From Escherichia phage vB_EcoP_D, in sequence record KY295893.1: a stretch of DNA of 44,931 nt. The stretch is one strand, 5' to 3'. Positions 1 to 33,542 of the stretch are shown here, one piece after another (the first letter of the stretch is position 1; every line of letters starts with the position of its first letter). Made by a program: the position numbers and the translations under genes. The notes below the pieces were generated by a model. The model was not told the origin of the DNA. It made no database searches and was given only the letters and a program-made list of their open reading frames with translations.

Positions 1-917
1 AGTCCACGAGCCATACCAGCGCGGCGGCGAGCATCCAGTCTAGCCTGATACTCAGCAGCAGCTTTCTTGTCTGTGCCGAAGCGAGAGCTAAGGGTCATCA
101 TCTCACGCAGGTACTGCTCACGCGAGAGTGGGCCGTTGTCTTCTGATGCGGCAGCAGGTGCAGATGGTTCAATCAGGCTTGGCTTGTCATCACCTTGTGC
201 AGCCTTACGGCGGCTCTCCAGTTCACGCACAGCGTATTGCTGAAGGTACTGGTTGCCAGATCCCATCACCGCATTGAATGCCATTAGTTCGTCATCAGAC
301 AGCGCTTCAAGTGCCCACGCCTCAAGACGGGACCACCCTTCTTCACCACCAATTTCCTTAGAAACATCAGAGAAGCGTTGGGTATTAGCTGCTTCCAACT
401 CTTTAGCTGCGTTGGCTTCTTTTAGGAAGAAGGCTTCATTTTGAGCCTTAAGGCCTGACAGGTAAGCATCTACCGCAAACTTGCCAAAAGCATCATACAG
501 TTTCTGCTTGGTTGCATCAGACAGCTCAAACTTGCCATCTTTGGCATAGAGTTCCTTGGCAACCTGCTTAGCATCAATACCTTTCTCTTTAAGGCTATCA
601 GTAACATCCTGTGGTATATCTACTGTTACTTCATAGTCTCCGAAGAAGTATTGCACTTCCTCAGTGTCGGTCGTGGTATCATCTGGCTTAGATTCACCAT
701 TCTCTCCGTCATTGTCTCTCGCTTCTGAAGGTTGTCCAGAAGTTTCTCCTCTGGTGTCTTCAGCAGATTGTGTACTAGCATTGTCATCTTGTACATTAGT
801 GCTAGTATCAGCATGAACATCATTAGTAGTAGCATCAGTTGATACCTCCTTGGTTTCTACCGGATTGTCTTCAGCAATAGGATGAGTGGTTGACGGTTCA
901 GTAAATGAGAAAGACAT
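1..917 (-). CDS. scaffolding protein, 3' end truncated by window start
   Basis: Open minus-strand frame from ATG 917..915 (RBS AAGGAGG, overlaps portal stop as TAATG) to the window edge; acidic ~305-aa product; sits between portal and capsid as T7 gene 9 does. Absent from the ORF track because no stop lies inside the window. Confidence 0.6.
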   Translation of the reverse strand, partial: MSFSFTEPSTTHPIAEDNPVETKEVSTDATTNDVHADTSTNVQDDNASTQSAEDTRGETSGQPSEARDNDGENGESKPDDTTTDTEEVQYFFGDYEVTVDIPQDVTDSLKEKGIDAKQVAKELYAKDGKFELSDATKQKLYDAFGKFAVDAYLSGLKAQNEAFFLKEANAAKELEAANTQRFSDVSKEIGGEEGWSRLEAWALEALSDDELMAFNAVMGSGNQYLQQYAVRELESRRKAAQGDDKPSLIEPSAPAAASEDNGPLSREQYLREMMTLSSRFGTDKKAAAEYQARLDARRRAGMARG

Positions 918-23949: not shown

Positions 23950-24300
23950 TGCAATCACTAAGGTCTGGCACTAAGACTAACTAAGGTACACTACTAAGTT
24001 GATACTAAGCTAAGCACTAAGGCTTTAACTAAGGCAGCCCACTAAGGCTAACCTAAGCCATCCATCAAGGAACAACCTAAGGTACACGTGAGCGAGTGAA
24101 CGGAGCGCAAGCGGAGTGAACGAAACGAACAGATAGCCCACACCCTCACACCTTGTCAAACACTCAGGAATTGCCCTAAAACGGCCTGTGTAAGCCCTAA
24201 GCGGTTGCACTAAGGCAATCACCTTGTCCAACACTAAGGCGTGCCCTAGCGCTTCCTAGGCGTTCTACTTGTGCAGCCACTAAGAGCAGACCTCGGCAAA
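23950..24300. repeat. array of short CTAAG(G) repeats (CCTTAGT on the coding strand)
   Basis: At least 14 copies of (C)ACTAAG(G) in ~350 bp, plus longer near-repeats CACCTTGTC(A/C)AACACT(C/A)AGG at ~24145 and ~24214; non-coding. Resembles in layout the 7-bp CCTAAAG arrays next to the T7 terminal repeat. Confidence 0.6.
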
Positions 24301-24384
24301 CCTCAGCCAACCCGTCGAGCTTCCTGCTGCCGCAGGTTGAAGACGGCCCAGCCTAGCCCAATTCCCAAGCCAACCGCAGCGCGG

Positions 24385-24426
24385 CCCCATATGGGGGAAA
24401 TCCGGCGAGGGCGAGGGCGAGAGAGC
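24385..24426. other. candidate genome-terminus region: CCCCATATGGGGG palindrome plus GGCGAGGGCGAGGGCGAGAGAGC
   Basis: Coding-strand reading TCTCTCGCCCTCGCCCTCGCCGGATTTCCCCCATATGGGGCC parallels the T7 left end as I recall it (TCTCACAG...TTCCCCCATAGGGGG); non-coding and GC-rich. Confidence 0.4.
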
Positions 24427-24483
24427 TGACACACGCCTACATCAAAATTTTTTTGACTTTGGTTACTTTGTGACCACCTTTGG

Positions 24484-24639
24484 TTACACTAAGTCGAAAC
24501 CTTGTGGCTTCTTCATGTAGCACTGGATAGTTCCACCAAGTACCTTCTGGCTGGCTAAGGCCGACTCCTCGGACTCATGAATCTTCCTGAGTACATTCTT
24601 CTGGAATGGACCTACACCATACGTATGAATCCAAATCAT
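24484..24639 (-). CDS. hypothetical small protein downstream of the tailspike
   Basis: 51 aa from ATG 24639 with strong RBS AGGAGG; track ORF 24484..24693 extends upstream without RBS. Confidence 0.4.
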   Translation of the reverse strand: MIWIHTYGVGPFQKNVLRKIHESEESALASQKVLGGTIQCYMKKPQGFDLV

Positions 24640-24836
24640 GTTACCTCCTTTGGAATACACTAAGAGCAGACCTAAGCCTGCCCTTGTGTACACTAAGATA
24701 TTAACCTGCTTACGCAGAAGATGCAGAAGGTTTCTTCATGGTACGACGTTGAACATCCTTGGCAATGGCATAAGCCTGCTTAGGGTCACGTCCTGATTGA
24801 ATAAGTTCTTCTGTGTTCTGGAGTACAGCAGCTTGC

Positions 24837-27272
24837 TTAACTGATTTTATTAGTGGCATACATATCCTCTAACTTGTCTAAACGATAACGAGTATAAGCA
24901 GCCTCCAAGATTAAGATTTCACTATATCTAACACCAAACTGACCTTCTTCGAAGGAGACAATGCCGAAGTCGATTGCATCTAACCCTTCGGATGCAAAAG
25001 CAGCTACAATGTCTTGTGCCAATACACCAAAGTGAGTGTGGTGCACACCACGAGACATCTCACCAATCAACTTGTACTGCTTGAAGCTAACCTTACCCCA
25101 TGCCTTTAGTACACTCTCATCAATACCTTGTGATCCATACTTATGAGTGGCATCAGACGTAATAATAGGGTCACTTGTAAGATGGATAGTAGTGAATCTA
25201 TTACGAGGGCCTCCAGCAGGATACACGTTATCATTGTATGGCATGATAGCCCCACTTTTGAACAAGTGCTCATTGGCATTATATACTGCGCGTCTAGAAG
25301 TACTAGAACCTGCTCCATGTAAGGTAATTTGCGCACCGGTATCTGCTGCTGTACCCTCTCCCCCAGAGATGATAACACGTTGTGCGGTTGGGTTATCCGT
25401 TGGTATAGTCTTACCAATGAACCCATATTCACCTTCCATCAGCATCTCTGAGCGAATATTAGCACTTGTACTTGCCTTCAGGGTAAGGTGTTCGACAGTC
25501 ATATCTGCGGCAACTACCTCTCCTGATAAGTGAAGTGGAGCAGGAATAGTACGAATACCATCAGTACCCATGAAGGTAGGTATAGCCTGACCCGGAGTTG
25601 CACCATATGTAAACTTACGAGATACACGATTGTCATTTGCAATCTGCATCTTATAGCAGTATATATCAGTGGGGTGTCCATGACCTTTAAATGGGTCTTT
25701 ATCTTTGTTGTCACCATAAGTCATTGGGTTGAAATGGTTTTCTCCACCAAAGATATAGTAAATGTAGCTGTCTTTAACTACTACCGAACCTACACCTACA
25801 CTAGAGTTCACAATGTCACCCTGATAGATTTGGTCTGTGATGTTAACCCATTCAATGTCATCTGCATTCCACTTGTTTACATTCAATCGTGCATAGAAGG
25901 TACGAGGATAAGATGCCTTGTAACGATCATCTGGTGCACCTGCTTCCCATTCATTTTCTGCACGTTCTGAACCAAACATAATAAGGTCATCTCCTACTTT
26001 AGCAAAAGGTAAGGTAGTATGATGAACATTATGTGGAAATCTTAGTGACTCCCAAGTTTGACCTATATCTCTACTACGATGCAGAGAGCTTCCTAGTCGA
26101 TCGCCACGAGTACCACGAGTGATAAGGTACAATACACCGTCATAGTACTTGATGCATGGCTCTGCCGCATCTGGTTCATACTCAGATGGTATCTGACGAC
26201 GAACATAATTAGATGGGCTATTGAAAGCATCAGGGAAGTAGAAAAGCCCAACTTCTCGTGGAGCTACATCACCTTGATGATAGCCCATAACAAAGCCATT
26301 GTTATCAATAGTAGCAAAGCTATGCACCTCTGTGACACGAGGGATTAGACCAAGATCTGTCTTACGCCAAGGAGATTTATGGAAAGAAGTACCCATGTGC
26401 CAACTCTTTCCAGCGTTATTCAAATCTGAAGTCTGCTGGTTAGGTGTAAGAACCGTGAAGTTGTCCTTATCTATTACTGTTGCAACCTTCATATCACCAG
26501 ATACACCTGTTACCGCAGAGTTAGAGAAGTTAACAAAATCACCAACGAAGAGTCCGTGATCAGGTACATGGATTGTTGCATATCTCTGATTTGCAGCCTT
26601 AGTGATACCACCAGTAAGATGCAGACTACGAGACATAGGGCGATCCCACAATGCACAATTGGTTAGTGCGTTCTTGGCTAAAGTACGTGTTTCAATCATG
26701 GCAAACAGACGGTTGCGACATACACCCATACTCATACAATGATAGTTCACTGTAGGGTAATCTGGATGCAGATCAGTTAACCACTCTGGAGTAGACCATG
26801 TTTGACCATCGTCACCAGACTTAACCCATGATACATGCAGACGACTAACACCATGACGGTCGCTACCCATGTAAGGTGCATATATCACGTTCTCATATAC
26901 AAACGCTTTGTCTTGAGGCCAAGCATTGTAATAAGGGTTATCCGTGATTTTATAGAGTTCACCATTGATAAAACCTTTACTCACATAGTAAAGAGGTTGA
27001 CCTGCTAAACGTTCCCATACGAAGCGGGTGTTATAGAATCGCTCCATATCAGGTAAAGATGATACTTTGTAAGTAGCACCAGCACCGTCAATTCTCTTAC
27101 CTGAAGCCATCGCTGCATTTACTGCATCTTGGTCGTTTGTCTTACCATCACCTTTGGCTCCAAAATCTTTAAGCGATACAACCTCGGTGAGCTTGTCATC
27201 CAAGTTACGCCAGATTGCACCTGCTATTTTACTCTTGAATTTAACTAATGAAGAACCTAGTCTTTGAATCAT
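24837..27272 (-). CDS. tailspike endosialidase (endo-N-acetylneuraminidase) with C-terminal intramolecular chaperone domain
   Basis: 811-aa ORF with two Asp-box sialidase motifs (SGDDGQTW, SRDIGQTW) and a large beta-propeller-sized body; length matches the 811-aa endosialidases I recall for K1E/K1-5; RBS AAGGAGG. Confidence 0.85.
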   Translation of the reverse strand: MIQRLGSSLVKFKSKIAGAIWRNLDDKLTEVVSLKDFGAKGDGKTNDQDAVNAAMASGKRIDGAGATYKVSSLPDMERFYNTRFVWERLAGQPLYYVSKGFINGELYKITDNPYYNAWPQDKAFVYENVIYAPYMGSDRHGVSRLHVSWVKSGDDGQTWSTPEWLTDLHPDYPTVNYHCMSMGVCRNRLFAMIETRTLAKNALTNCALWDRPMSRSLHLTGGITKAANQRYATIHVPDHGLFVGDFVNFSNSAVTGVSGDMKVATVIDKDNFTVLTPNQQTSDLNNAGKSWHMGTSFHKSPWRKTDLGLIPRVTEVHSFATIDNNGFVMGYHQGDVAPREVGLFYFPDAFNSPSNYVRRQIPSEYEPDAAEPCIKYYDGVLYLITRGTRGDRLGSSLHRSRDIGQTWESLRFPHNVHHTTLPFAKVGDDLIMFGSERAENEWEAGAPDDRYKASYPRTFYARLNVNKWNADDIEWVNITDQIYQGDIVNSSVGVGSVVVKDSYIYYIFGGENHFNPMTYGDNKDKDPFKGHGHPTDIYCYKMQIANDNRVSRKFTYGATPGQAIPTFMGTDGIRTIPAPLHLSGEVVAADMTVEHLTLKASTSANIRSEMLMEGEYGFIGKTIPTDNPTAQRVIISGGEGTAADTGAQITLHGAGSSTSRRAVYNANEHLFKSGAIMPYNDNVYPAGGPRNRFTTIHLTSDPIITSDATHKYGSQGIDESVLKAWGKVSFKQYKLIGEMSRGVHHTHFGVLAQDIVAAFASEGLDAIDFGIVSFEEGQFGVRYSEILILEAAYTRYRLDKLEDMYATNKIS

Positions 27273-27339
27273 GTAACCTCCTTTTCTGAAAGGCTACCAT
27301 CATGATAACCTTTAAGAAAAGTTGCGCGAAAAGCAGTGC

Positions 27340-27675
27340 TTACGCACTGACAATGTGTTTACCTAGAATGTAAACATCTACATCTATGTCTATTTCAACT
27401 TGTGCTGTATGGAATACATGTACTTCTAATCTAGTATCTGACACTTTAGTAATCCAAGCTGTACAAAGTGTAGGTGTACTTAATGATACAAGTGATGCCC
27501 ACGAAGAATCTAAATCTCCTGTTGCAGGTACTTCTATCTCAATTTTAGTATCTTCACTTGGGACTACACCTTCAAATGTAACACGCCTTTTAGATAGTAA
27601 ATTATCCAATAATGTAGCTAGTACAGTATCTCTATGTAGTAAGCCAGTTGTCTTGGGTTTAGTTAACTTAGCCAT
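27340..27675 (-). CDS. 111-aa ORF upstream of the endosialidase (possible remnant of a second tail protein)
   Basis: ATG 27675 (MAKLTKPK) with RBS AGGAGAG, directly downstream of promoter 27755..27777. A 111-aa ORF in this position is what I recall for K1E. Confidence 0.55.
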   Translation of the reverse strand: MAKLTKPKTTGLLHRDTVLATLLDNLLSKRRVTFEGVVPSEDTKIEIEVPATGDLDSSWASLVSLSTPTLCTAWITKVSDTRLEVHVFHTAQVEIDIDVDVYILGKHIVSA

Positions 27676-27754
27676 ATACTCTCCTATTACTTCCCAACCC
27701 TCCCTATGAAGATTGGCTAGTAATAGGCCGCTCAAAAGAACGGCACTATCTTAT

Positions 27755-27777
27755 CTCTTCTATAGTGTCAGTAAATC
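27755..27777 (-). promoter_or_regulatory. phage RNAP promoter upstream of the tailspike module (GATTTACTGACACTATAGAAGAG)
   Basis: -10 to +6 (TGACACTATAGAAGAG) identical to the SP6 consensus; upstream part shifted relative to the main class; +1 G at 27760. Confidence 0.6.
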
Positions 27778-27805
27778 GTAAGACACTGATACATAAAACT
27801 ATGTA

Positions 27806-28003
27806 TTAATTATACCCGTGTTCTAGCGAGAGAATGTACATACCTAATTTTGTAGCGTCAGGTTTACTGAAGCAGACTTTATCGTCCACCTCGTAGACTG
27901 CCGTAAGCGTCGGCTTCAGAGGCTTCACCTTTGGATTCTCTGGTAACGCCGTCTGACACCCTGAAGTGATCAGCGAACCAATCAGCAGGATTGTCGCTAG
28001 CAT
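27806..28003 (-). CDS. candidate outer-membrane spanin (Rz1-like lipoprotein)
   Basis: 65 aa from ATG 28003 (RBS GAGG): MLATILLIGSLITSGC followed by Pro-rich QTALPENPKVKPLKP; lipobox is imperfect; embedded in another frame of the ORF below. Confidence 0.4.
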   Translation of the reverse strand: MLATILLIGSLITSGCQTALPENPKVKPLKPTLTAVYEVDDKVCFSKPDATKLGMYILSLEHGYN

Positions 28004-28100
28004 GATTCGCCTCACTTTGTGCCTCCTTCTCTTCCTTCTTCTTCTTAGCGGCAAGCAGCAGGCCAATAAGACCTGCTACCACCTCTAGCACCTTATTCAC
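27879..28100 (-). CDS. candidate inner-membrane spanin-like protein (GTG start, no RBS)
   Basis: 73-aa ORF with N-terminal TM-like VLEVVAGLIGLLLAA then charged region; starts at GTG overlapping the upstream stop; short for an Rz. Confidence 0.3.
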   Translation of the reverse strand: MNKVLEVVAGLIGLLLAAKKKKEEKEAQSEANHASDNPADWFADHFRVSDGVTRESKGEASEADAYGSLRGGR

Positions 28101-28242
28101 AGGTGATTACTTGGCATACCACGTCAGTGACGGAACCTTCAGTACCTTCACCTAGGTCTACGCCAAGACCTACAGAAACAAGAGCAATCACCAGTGCAAC
28201 CAGTGCACCTACCACTTTCTTAGACTTAAACAGCTTTTTCAT
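28093..28242 (-). CDS. hypothetical small membrane protein (49 aa)
   Basis: MKKLFKSKKVVGALVALVIALVSVGLGVDLGEGTEGSVTDVVCQVITCE, RBS GGGAG; single TM; below track cutoff. Could be a holin or antiholin. Confidence 0.35.
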   Translation of the reverse strand: MKKLFKSKKVVGALVALVIALVSVGLGVDLGEGTEGSVTDVVCQVITCE

Positions 28243-29294: not shown

Positions 29295-29427
29295 TCTCTC
29301 TCCTATTATGTAAGTATAGTAAGGAAGTAAGGAATAGGGTGTACAGGAGTACACCCATACTAAGGAATACCTATATAACCTAGGTTAACCTATATTATCC
29401 TTGTTATTTCTCTTATTATCTGGGCCT

Positions 29428-29450
29428 TCCTTCTATAGTGTCCGGTAATT
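29428..29450 (-). promoter_or_regulatory. phage RNAP promoter, main subclass (AATTACCGGACACTATAGAAGGA)
   Basis: +1 G at 29433; overlaps the terminase stop codon; upstream of the paralog pair and lysis genes. Confidence 0.55.
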
Positions 29451-32579: not shown

Positions 32580-33542
32580 TTACACTAGTTGTAGCTTCAC
32601 ACTTACGACACACTCAGGTAATGGCTCACTGAAAGTGATAGTAGACCCTACGATTTCATAAGCATTATTAGGTTGATACAGGCCATCCAAGTATACATCA
32701 AGACGTTGGAAAGCCGTTACAATGTCGATAGATTGTGTACCTTCACTCACTGCTTGTGTAAAGAGGATAGTATCCGCACTTGTAGGTGGGGTTAAGCGAC
32801 TACCGATAAGCACATAAACTTCATCCCCAGCCTGTAATGGCTCGGACAGGGTTATAACATCATACCCCACTGATACTGCACCTGCTAGTTCATGCTGGAA
32901 TACACCGTTTATAAACACCATAGCATCATCAAATGAGTAAGGTGGTCGAATGATTTGCTCTCCACCGGAGGCGACCATATACCAAGGAATCGTGCGATGA
33001 GATACACCAGACACCATTCCTCTCTTAATACCAGCAATCTCTATATCTTGTGCAGAGTTCCAATCAGTATGCTTCTTGTCGATAGCATCTAGCTGTGATT
33101 TATTTACTGCATCTTTTGGATTCTCACCATCAGCTAGGTCAGTAATCTTATTGCCGCCCCAGCTTACATTCTGCTTAATGAAGTATCCTTCTGGATAAAA
33201 CCCATCAAGTAACTCCTGTGTAATCTCCAGTATATGAATGAAAGAGCCATTTAAAGACTTCATATCCAAGGTAACACCACGGTCAAACTCAGCGTATGGA
33301 TATTCCTTTTGTACTTCCCTTCGAATACGGAACTTCAAACCTGCAACAGGTGCTACATCAAAAGTGATTTGATGCGTACCAGTTAATTGCCAGCCAGATG
33401 TAACCTCAATCCAAGTGTTACCTTGAAGAGATTCCACTATCACATCTGAGGCACGAAGATAGCCTTTATCCCTGCCAGCAAAGCTAAAGGGATAGGTTAC
33501 TTGCGTACCGTTGGCTATATGTTCTGTGAAAGTATAACTCAT
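32580..33542 (-). CDS. tail-fibre/tailspike adaptor protein (T7 gp17 N-terminal-domain-like)
   Basis: 320 aa from ATG 33542 (overlaps upstream stop as ATGA); N-terminus MSYTFTEHIANGTQVTYPFSFAGRDKGYLRASDVIV follows the pattern of T7 tail-fibre N-termini; too short to be a full fibre. Confidence 0.65.
   Translation of the reverse strand: MSYTFTEHIANGTQVTYPFSFAGRDKGYLRASDVIVESLQGNTWIEVTSGWQLTGTHQITFDVAPVAGLKFRIRREVQKEYPYAEFDRGVTLDMKSLNGSFIHILEITQELLDGFYPEGYFIKQNVSWGGNKITDLADGENPKDAVNKSQLDAIDKKHTDWNSAQDIEIAGIKRGMVSGVSHRTIPWYMVASGGEQIIRPPYSFDDAMVFINGVFQHELAGAVSVGYDVITLSEPLQAGDEVYVLIGSRLTPPTSADTILFTQAVSEGTQSIDIVTAFQRLDVYLDGLYQPNNAYEIVGSTITFSEPLPECVVSVKLQLV

Follow-up and report, generated by a model that had tools for sequence, protein, structure and literature searches.

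The genome of Escherichia phage vB_EcoP_D (sequence record KY295893.1; 44,931 nucleotides, all of which were analysed and are called the window below) carries on its minus strand, between positions 24,837 and 27,777, a tailspike module in which a phage-type promoter is followed by gene 46, coding for a protein of 111 amino acids (aa), and by gene 47, coding for a predicted endosialidase. Here, we report that this module almost certainly represents the tailspike operon at the right end of a K1E-like Vectrevirus genome, and we propose a mechanism for its action. The identity of the module, its domains and conserved residues, the cassette boundaries, the promoter sequence, the conservation of RNA structure and the presence of the adapter protein gp37 are direct observations, and no evidence contradicting the identification as an endosialidase module was found in this analysis.

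The module as such is already known: it is annotated in public records, the phage group has been published (PMC5582158), and a sequence of the K1E endosialidase module has been available since the 1990s (X78310), so that the K1 specificity predicted in an initial annotation of this DNA is correct but textbook knowledge. The value of the present analysis is corrective. The likeness to the SP6 promoter in these phages is no sign of horizontal acquisition, and the true boundaries of exchange are located within genes 46 and 47, adjoining conserved structured RNA segments. These boundaries, together with the evidence for selection on gp46, could help host-range engineering by tailspike swaps in SP6- and K1E-like phages. 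Small additions are the purifying selection on gp46 and the recognition of the leader and the 46-47 spacer as conserved structured RNAs with covariation.

Gene 47 is identified by its sequence as a K1E/K1-5-type endosialidase tailspike (GH58). Its product, gp47, has the same length as the gp47 proteins of phages K1E and K1-5 (all three are of 811 aa) and is 90% identical to each of them, in agreement with the size and type proposed initially; it differs from the K1A protein at 13 of the 811 positions and is ~98% identical to that of PK1A. In a sequence search of the PDB, the K1F endoNF structures 1v0e/3gvl were matched over aa 38-705 (E = 0) and the chaperone-domain structure 3gw6 with E = 8.6e-58. 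Alignment with K1E, K1-5 and K1F confirmed strong endosialidase similarity with the catalytic residues kept: residues H140, E371, R386 and R437 of gp47 align (MAFFT) with H350, E581, R596 and R647 of K1F, the numbers that we take from the endoNF literature to be those of the catalytic residues (Glu581, Arg596, Arg647 and His350). The two Asp-boxes pointed out in the initial annotation, SGDDGQTW (aa 152-159) and SRDIGQTW (aa 400-407), both align with the two Asp-boxes of K1F. The C-terminal chaperone domain expected there is also present, as a Peptidase_S74 domain whose S706 and K711 align with the self-cleavage pair S911/K916 of K1F in the same MAFFT alignment; by analogy with the relatives, cleavage after Ser706 would give a mature enzyme of 78.6 kDa and a released chaperone of 11.8 kDa. 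PK1A has been described as having a catalytically active endosialidase, and two substitutions in PK1A2 were reported to abolish catalysis yet keep binding (PMC5715158). gp47 carries H417 and N489 as in wild-type PK1A, and mutPK1A2 has Y417 and D489.

The relatedness of gp47 changes along its length. Over aa 1-550 it is 98-100% identical to K1E and 96-100% identical to K1-5; in 50-residue windows over aa 551-800 the identity is 56-84% to K1E versus 94-100% to K1A/PK1A, and the last 11 residues are 91% identical to K1E and K1A alike. At the DNA level, nucleotides 1651-2400 of the gene are only 58-79% identical to K1E. Since the first 550 residues are K1E-like but aa 551-811 are of PK1A type, the alignments indicate an intragenic recombination junction near nucleotide 1650 of gene 47. 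Mosaicism of this type has been described before (Stummeyer 2006, as cited in a review, PMC6966330). The catalytic core is also related to that of a T7-like Kayfunavirus: window positions 27032..25390 are 86.8% identical in DNA over 1,644 nucleotides to gene 17 of K1F, and aa 101-500 of the protein are 92-100% identical.

The limits of the exchangeable parts of the operon were inferred from DNA homology, which extends to K1-5 over 28100..27650 and 27349..24637, and to SP6 over 28100..27656, 27349..27241, 24876..24718 and 24481..24402. These breakpoints therefore delimit two variable bodies, slot 1 at ~27649..27350 and slot 2 at ~27240..24877. In the alignments, the promoter, the leader and the inter-slot spacer are conserved around the variable enzyme bodies, and gp47 begins with MIQRLGSS, as does the slot 2 protein of SP6. 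With gp37 present, docking peptides on both slot proteins and conserved flanks, the module can be classified as an SP6/K1E-type two-slot cassette. Horizontal exchange, as far as it can be read from these alignments, shows in the mosaic of gene 47 and in the cassette breakpoints, not in the promoter.

Gene 46, which occupies slot 1, is the sole gene between the promoter and gene 47, as stated in the initial annotation, and has a strong and conserved ribosome-binding site, AGGAG, before its ATG (TAATAGGAGAGTATATG). Its product is 97% identical to K1E gp46 (X78310 “12kDa ORF”, ORF standing for open reading frame) and lies at the same position, which bears out the proposed correspondence with K1E and the contrast with K1-5, where a K5 lyase is found instead. 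A 131-aa version of the gene with a TTG start was rejected because this TTG sits inside the conserved leader hairpins; the ATG is preferred for its ribosome-binding site and for an N-terminus matching both K1E gp46 and K5 lyase. Alignment with the K5 lyase revealed likeness at the N-terminus only. The N-terminal peptide MAKLTKPKTTGLLH is common to both proteins, the BLASTP match (18/46 identities, E = 7e-7) is confined to aa 1-45, the sole PDB sequence match of gp46 is to residues 38-83 of K5 lyase 2x3h, and at the DNA level homology with the lyase gene of K1-5 does not extend beyond about codon 9. With its 111 aa and with the lyase similarity over by residue ~45, gp46 has no beta-helix lyase domain; it shares the docking peptide of the K5 lyase but is no lyase. 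According to a review that cites Leiman 2007, K1E gp46 is a small, truncated, non-enzymatic protein attached via gp37 (PMC6966330). The gp46 family is narrow, with 27 phage records, all from K1-type Vectrevirus (phrog_15083); a homologue search of a 5.8-billion-protein database gave three clusters, all at least 84% identical, and no distant relatives, and a Pfam search of gp46, gp48 and the spanin gave no match. In an AlphaFold model built from a 4-sequence alignment, gp46 has a disordered N-terminus, a short helix and six strands (predicted local distance difference test, pLDDT, 58; predicted template modelling score, pTM, 0.45), and from this low-confidence model the body beyond the N-terminal peptide is predicted to be small and all-beta. 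A Foldseek comparison of the model with the PDB gave nothing at E <= 0.001; its weak matches include a few beta-domains of phage tailspikes and fibres and are unusable.

Given this restricted similarity, gp46 could be what is left of a K5-lyase-type tailspike gene that has lost its function and is decaying, in effect a pseudogene whose frame is still open. Such an origin would fit the confinement of the lyase likeness to the first ~14-45 residues, the lack of a Pfam domain, the description of gp46 as truncated and without enzymatic activity in the same review, and the viability of K1A and mutPK1A2 (426..566), in which a 1-base deletion in an A-run frameshifts gene 46 to 46 aa; the C-terminal body of gp46 is therefore dispensable in culture. 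Against it stands the behaviour of the gene in every other sampled lineage. In six lineages gene 46 has exactly 111 codons, and all 15 pairwise comparisons give a ratio of nonsynonymous to synonymous divergence (dN/dS) of 0.10-0.44, at synonymous divergence (dS) of up to 0.38; gene 46 is therefore under purifying selection. The ribosome-binding site is also maintained, and K5 lyase shows no resemblance to residues 46-111, so that the gene is not a simple truncation of a lyase gene. We consider functionless decay unlikely and regard gp46 as a selected protein.

Two further alternatives concern the operon promoter (GATTTACTGACACTATAGAAGAG). The promoter scan revealed eleven further phage-type promoters in the window (consensus ATTTACCGGACACTATAGAAGAA) and no second one between the module promoter and the end of gene 47; the SP6 23-mer pattern at <=3 mismatches gave 0 matches in 100 shuffles; together with the Pfam propeller match (E = 1.9e-222), this places the features of the module well outside chance expectation. 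The initial annotation held the module promoter to be closer to the SP6 consensus than most others in the genome. This is true when one gap is allowed (edit distance 2, the lowest of the 12 promoters) and for positions -10..+6, where 16/16 bases match SP6 (12-15/16 in the others), the best value in the genome; it is not true of the ungapped 23-nucleotide comparison, in which the module promoter has five mismatches and the other eleven have 3-7, four of them being closer. Positions -17..-11 match SP6 at only 2/7, the upstream element being out of register by one nucleotide. Canonical promoters of this type combine, in a fixed register, an AT-rich element at -17..-13 with a specificity element at -12..-8; in the module promoter the core at -9..+6 is perfect. 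The orthologous site reads ATTTACTGGACACTATAGAAGAG in K1E, K1-5, K5, K1A, mutPK1A2, vB_EcoP_B, vB_EcoP_K, UTI89UKE3 and ACG-C91, and the window has the same sequence minus one G (GG to G at -10/-9). The SP6-like look is thus due to a one-base deletion in an ordinary genus promoter. Against a position-weight matrix derived from the eleven remaining promoters of the genome, the module promoter reaches 22.0 bits as it is, the second lowest value of the twelve, and 36.1 bits, the highest, with the G restored; the deletion, private to this lineage, probably weakens the operon promoter. Upstream of gene 46, no convincing terminator was found as far as the promoter at 29450, and read-through from that promoter could therefore supply the operon.

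The SP6-like promoter had been regarded as consistent with a separate acquisition of the module, and in its full form this would mean that the promoter, gene 46 and gene 47 came as a unit from an SP6-like source, with the promoter as its trace. Beyond the perfect -10..+6 match and the lowest edit distance there is little room for such an origin, which we hold to be highly improbable. Related phages carry the genus-type promoter at this very site, with the window one G short (ATTTACTGACACTATAG); SP6 itself has a different sequence there, its own consensus ATTTAGGTGACACTATAGAATAG; five ungapped mismatches are mid-range for the genome; and the promoter, the leader and the spacer belong to a backbone that is collinear with SP6 and K1-5, in which homology is interrupted only within genes 46 and 47. 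As the promoter differs from the genus consensus by one lost G, it is no evidence of separate acquisition, and it is best described as a slightly damaged copy of the orthologous backbone promoter rather than a foreign one, the promoter and leader being backbone shared with SP6. In each phage the sequence at this site follows the specificity of its own polymerase. The deletion might instead be an assembly or sequencing artefact common to the genomes of one study, the real phage having the canonical promoter. Among the compared phages it is indeed limited to the window, vB_EcoP_C and vB_EcoP_R, which come from the same collection and laboratory; however, the site is a GG dinucleotide and no long homopolymer, vB_EcoP_B and vB_EcoP_K of the same study keep the full GG, and C and R are separate assemblies of 44,970 and 44,941 bp. 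An artefact is accordingly improbable, and a genuine one-base loss from the genus promoter is the preferred explanation.

Both non-coding segments of the operon are structured and conserved, with compensatory changes in several genera of the Molineuxvirinae. The leader has a minimum free energy of -33.9 kcal/mol (z = -5.7) and is conserved in 109 phage records; in an alignment of 11 phages, 99.2% of cells pair versus 36-52% in slid controls, and 5 pairs are changed on both sides. Its second hairpin has ~17-19 base pairs with an internal loop. The spacer (z = -5.3) is conserved in 107 records, and across 15 phages of Escherichia, Salmonella, Proteus, Pectobacterium, Lelliottia and Citrobacter hosts 96.4% of cells pair versus 39-57% in slid controls; five pairs are changed on both sides, three of them within the six-pair hairpin A, which is annotated as a terminator in the LL11 record. 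Protein-anchored and DNA-pattern scans of viral contigs gave 6 and 7 loci, mostly from the same phages, so that the diversity behind the covariation is that of the phage record collection. An Rfam scan of 24000..28200 gave no relevant family. Regions of symmetry in the 46-47 intergenic region were reportedly noted by Scholl and colleagues in 2001, and the existence of the spacer and leader elements is therefore not new; the covariation support for them may be.

A 70-nucleotide relic of the 46-47 spacer was also observed in Escherichia phage alia (MN850632, 1501..1570), a 147-kb Justusliebigvirus myovirus, where it follows a tailspike-like gene. Hairpin A is identical there and hairpin B has compensated changes, and no MIQRLG-type gene follows. 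The tailspike-like gene is not K5-lyase-like. The relic suggests a past cassette exchange between unrelated phage types. Another hairpin, of 8 bp and G+C-rich (GGGTGTAC...GTACACCC), was found in the window at 29337..29356 on the minus strand, just downstream of the phage promoter 29450..29428; it overlaps the start of the next ORF (GTG at 29354) and may belong to another structured leader.

The following scheme is proposed for the operon, in which cleavage, trimerisation, docking and enzymatic activity are extrapolated from work on K1E, K1F and PK1A. The phage RNA polymerase would start at the module promoter and probably also read through from the 29450 promoter, giving a transcript composed of the structured leader, gene 46, the structured spacer, gene 47 and two small genes. 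gp47 would be made as a 90-kDa precursor, with its chaperone domain driving folding of the trimer and then being cut off after Ser706 to leave an endosialidase of ~79 kDa. Through its N-terminal peptide gp47 would dock to the gp37 adapter on the tail, where it would be carried as trimers, and its six-bladed propeller (Glu371, Arg386, Arg437) would cleave the alpha-2,8-polysialic acid of the K1 capsule and let the virion reach the cell surface. gp46 would be a short occupant of the other site of the adapter, the one taken by the K5 lyase in K1-5, with a docking peptide and no enzyme domain. This scheme reproduces the published K1E model as it is summarised in a review (PMC6966330).

A broader proposal, which we put forward only tentatively and consider less probable than not, joins these elements: the leader and spacer would be functional RNAs across the Molineuxvirinae, gp46 a selected plug of a vacant adapter site, and the promoter deletion a retuning of tailspike expression. 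Under this proposal the RNAs could be processing sites of the RNase III or terminator type which mask the ribosome-binding sites and set the ratio of the two tailspikes, and the leader and spacer could double as homology arms for cassette exchange. Several observations weigh against parts of the main interpretation given before this proposal: the gp46 fold model is of low confidence (pLDDT 58) and its fold search gave no significant match, the module promoter is still the 12th-best 23-mer of the 89,816 in the genome, and each of its bases at -11..-8 occurs in other promoters of the genome.

Table 1. Features of the tailspike operon and associated genes of phage vB_EcoP_D (window positions unless given as aa of gp47)
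Feature	Position	Strand	Description and evidence
Phage-RNA-polymerase promoter of the tailspike operon	27755..27777	-	-17..+6, +1 G at 27760; promoter scan
5' leader of the operon	27676..27754	-	Transcription start (+1, 27760) within the promoter 23-mer
Leader hairpin hp1	27744..27727	-	
Leader hairpin hp2	27726..27684	-	3' arm adjacent to the ribosome-binding site of gene 46
Gene 46	27340..27675	-	111 aa, 12.2 kDa, ATG start; cassette slot 1; K1E gp46 homologue
46-47 spacer	27273..27339	-	Conserved, structured
Spacer hairpin A	27349..27334		Overlaps gene 46 end; gene 46 stop codon in GUAA loop, then CUUUUC
Spacer hairpin B	27321..27281		~19 bp; 3' arm overlaps the gene 47 ribosome-binding site
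Gene 47, predicted endosialidase tailspike	24837..27272	-	811 aa, 90.3 kDa, ATG start; Pfam, PDB, residue alignment
gp47 docking peptide	aa 1-38		
gp47 N-terminal extension	aa 39-102		End_N_terminal
gp47 beta-propeller	aa 103-545		End_beta_propel PF12217, E = 1.9e-222
gp47 inserted beta-barrel	aa 214-296		End_beta_barrel PF12195, E = 1.7e-46
gp47 stalk (triple-beta-helix)	aa 546-705		End_tail_spike PF12219, E = 9.7e-85
gp47 chaperone	aa 706-763		Peptidase_S74 PF13884; predicted released part aa 707-811 (25154..24840)
PK1A-type segment of gene 47	24840..25622	-	Stalk and chaperone, aa 551-811; divergent from K1E and K1-5
Small downstream gene	24710..24859	-	49 aa, K1-5 gp48-like; phrog_2423 E = 1.2e-23
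Small gene, last before the genome right end	24484..24639	-	51 aa from its ATG; phrog_3955 E = 1.7e-24
Gene 37	32583..33542	-	Adapter attaching gp46 and gp47 to the tail; outside the module; tblastn with K1E gp37

Comparison with known systems places the operon closest to that of phage K1E (X78310, 12kDa ORF and gp90 endosialidase; AM084415, gp46 and gp47), with which it shares gene order, the ORF lengths of 111 and 811 aa, the leader and the spacer. The gene 37 product, found by tblastn, is 99% identical over 320 aa to K1E gp37, which is annotated as an endosialidase adaptor protein; gp46 and gp47 are 97% and 90% identical, respectively, and the operon differs from K1E in the diverging stalk and chaperone and in the promoter lacking one G. 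The PK1A endosialidase (EF507428) and mutPK1A2 (MG004687) represent the closest endosialidase type over the full length, including stalk and chaperone; unlike the window, K1A and mutPK1A2 combine the frameshifted gene 46 with a canonical promoter, and mutPK1A2 has the two substitutions given above. Phage K1-5 shares the leader, the spacer, the slot 2 enzyme, the orthologous promoter site and, in slot 1, the peptide MAKLTKP.T.G.LH, but its slot 1 holds a K5 lyase of 632 aa and DNA homology is lost from window position 27650 to 27349. The K1F endoNF (gene 17; 1v0e, 3gvl, 3gw6) has the same propeller, barrel, active-site residues and chaperone cleavage chemistry; it is, however, a protein of 1,064 aa that binds the tail through an N-terminal domain of T7 gp17 type and needs no adapter, and its N-terminus, stalk and chaperone are divergent from gp47. 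SP6 (gp46/gp47 in the literature, SP6p49/SP6p50 in RefSeq) has in common with the window the promoter position, the leader and spacer hairpins, the small gene downstream and, in the slot 2 gene, the first ~10 codons, whereas both of its tailspike bodies are other enzymes that target the Salmonella O-antigen and its promoter is of SP6's own type.

At the level of the genome, Escherichia phages vB_EcoP_C and vB_EcoP_R match the 3.7-kb module region (24400..28100) with 100% identity; the value is 96-98% for vB_EcoP_B, vB_EcoP_K, mutPK1A2 and K1A, and ~92% for K1E. The host recorded for vB_EcoP_C and vB_EcoP_R is E. coli O18ac:K1:H7. The group comprises the K1-specific therapeutic phages of Smith and Huggins (R, C), which were re-characterised later; an endosialidase gene was reported in all nine K1 phages, and resistant bacterial mutants were largely K1-negative (PMC5582158). 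The predicted K1 host range is therefore documented for these phages, both by the host field of near-identical phages and in that publication. All long ORFs near the module are on the minus strand, the half of the window that lies outside the module shares 99.9% identity with vB_EcoP_R and, in reverse orientation, is collinear with K1E, and window position ~24422 aligns with K1E position 1. From these alignments, the window is recognised as a rotated, reverse-complemented assembly of a K1E-like Vectrevirus, with the module at the right end of the genome.

The physical ends of the genome fall at ~24160..24480 of the window, a G+C-rich stretch in which either strand gives spurious ORFs. Of the direct terminal repeat (250-289 bp), one copy appears to be collapsed; for phage R, the paper gives 45,230 bp and the deposit has 44,941 bp. 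Of the two small genes that follow gene 47, the gp48-like one overlaps its last 23 nucleotides, a layout that is also annotated in K1-5, and this stretch is homologous to SP6 as well. For the other, the phrog_3955 match begins at residue 19 of a longer ORF of 69 aa with a GTG start, and an AGGAGG ribosome-binding site precedes the inner ATG. Finally, in K1E (AM084415, 11778..12301) a putative homing endonuclease gene, 40.5, splits the large terminase gene into 40A and 40B.

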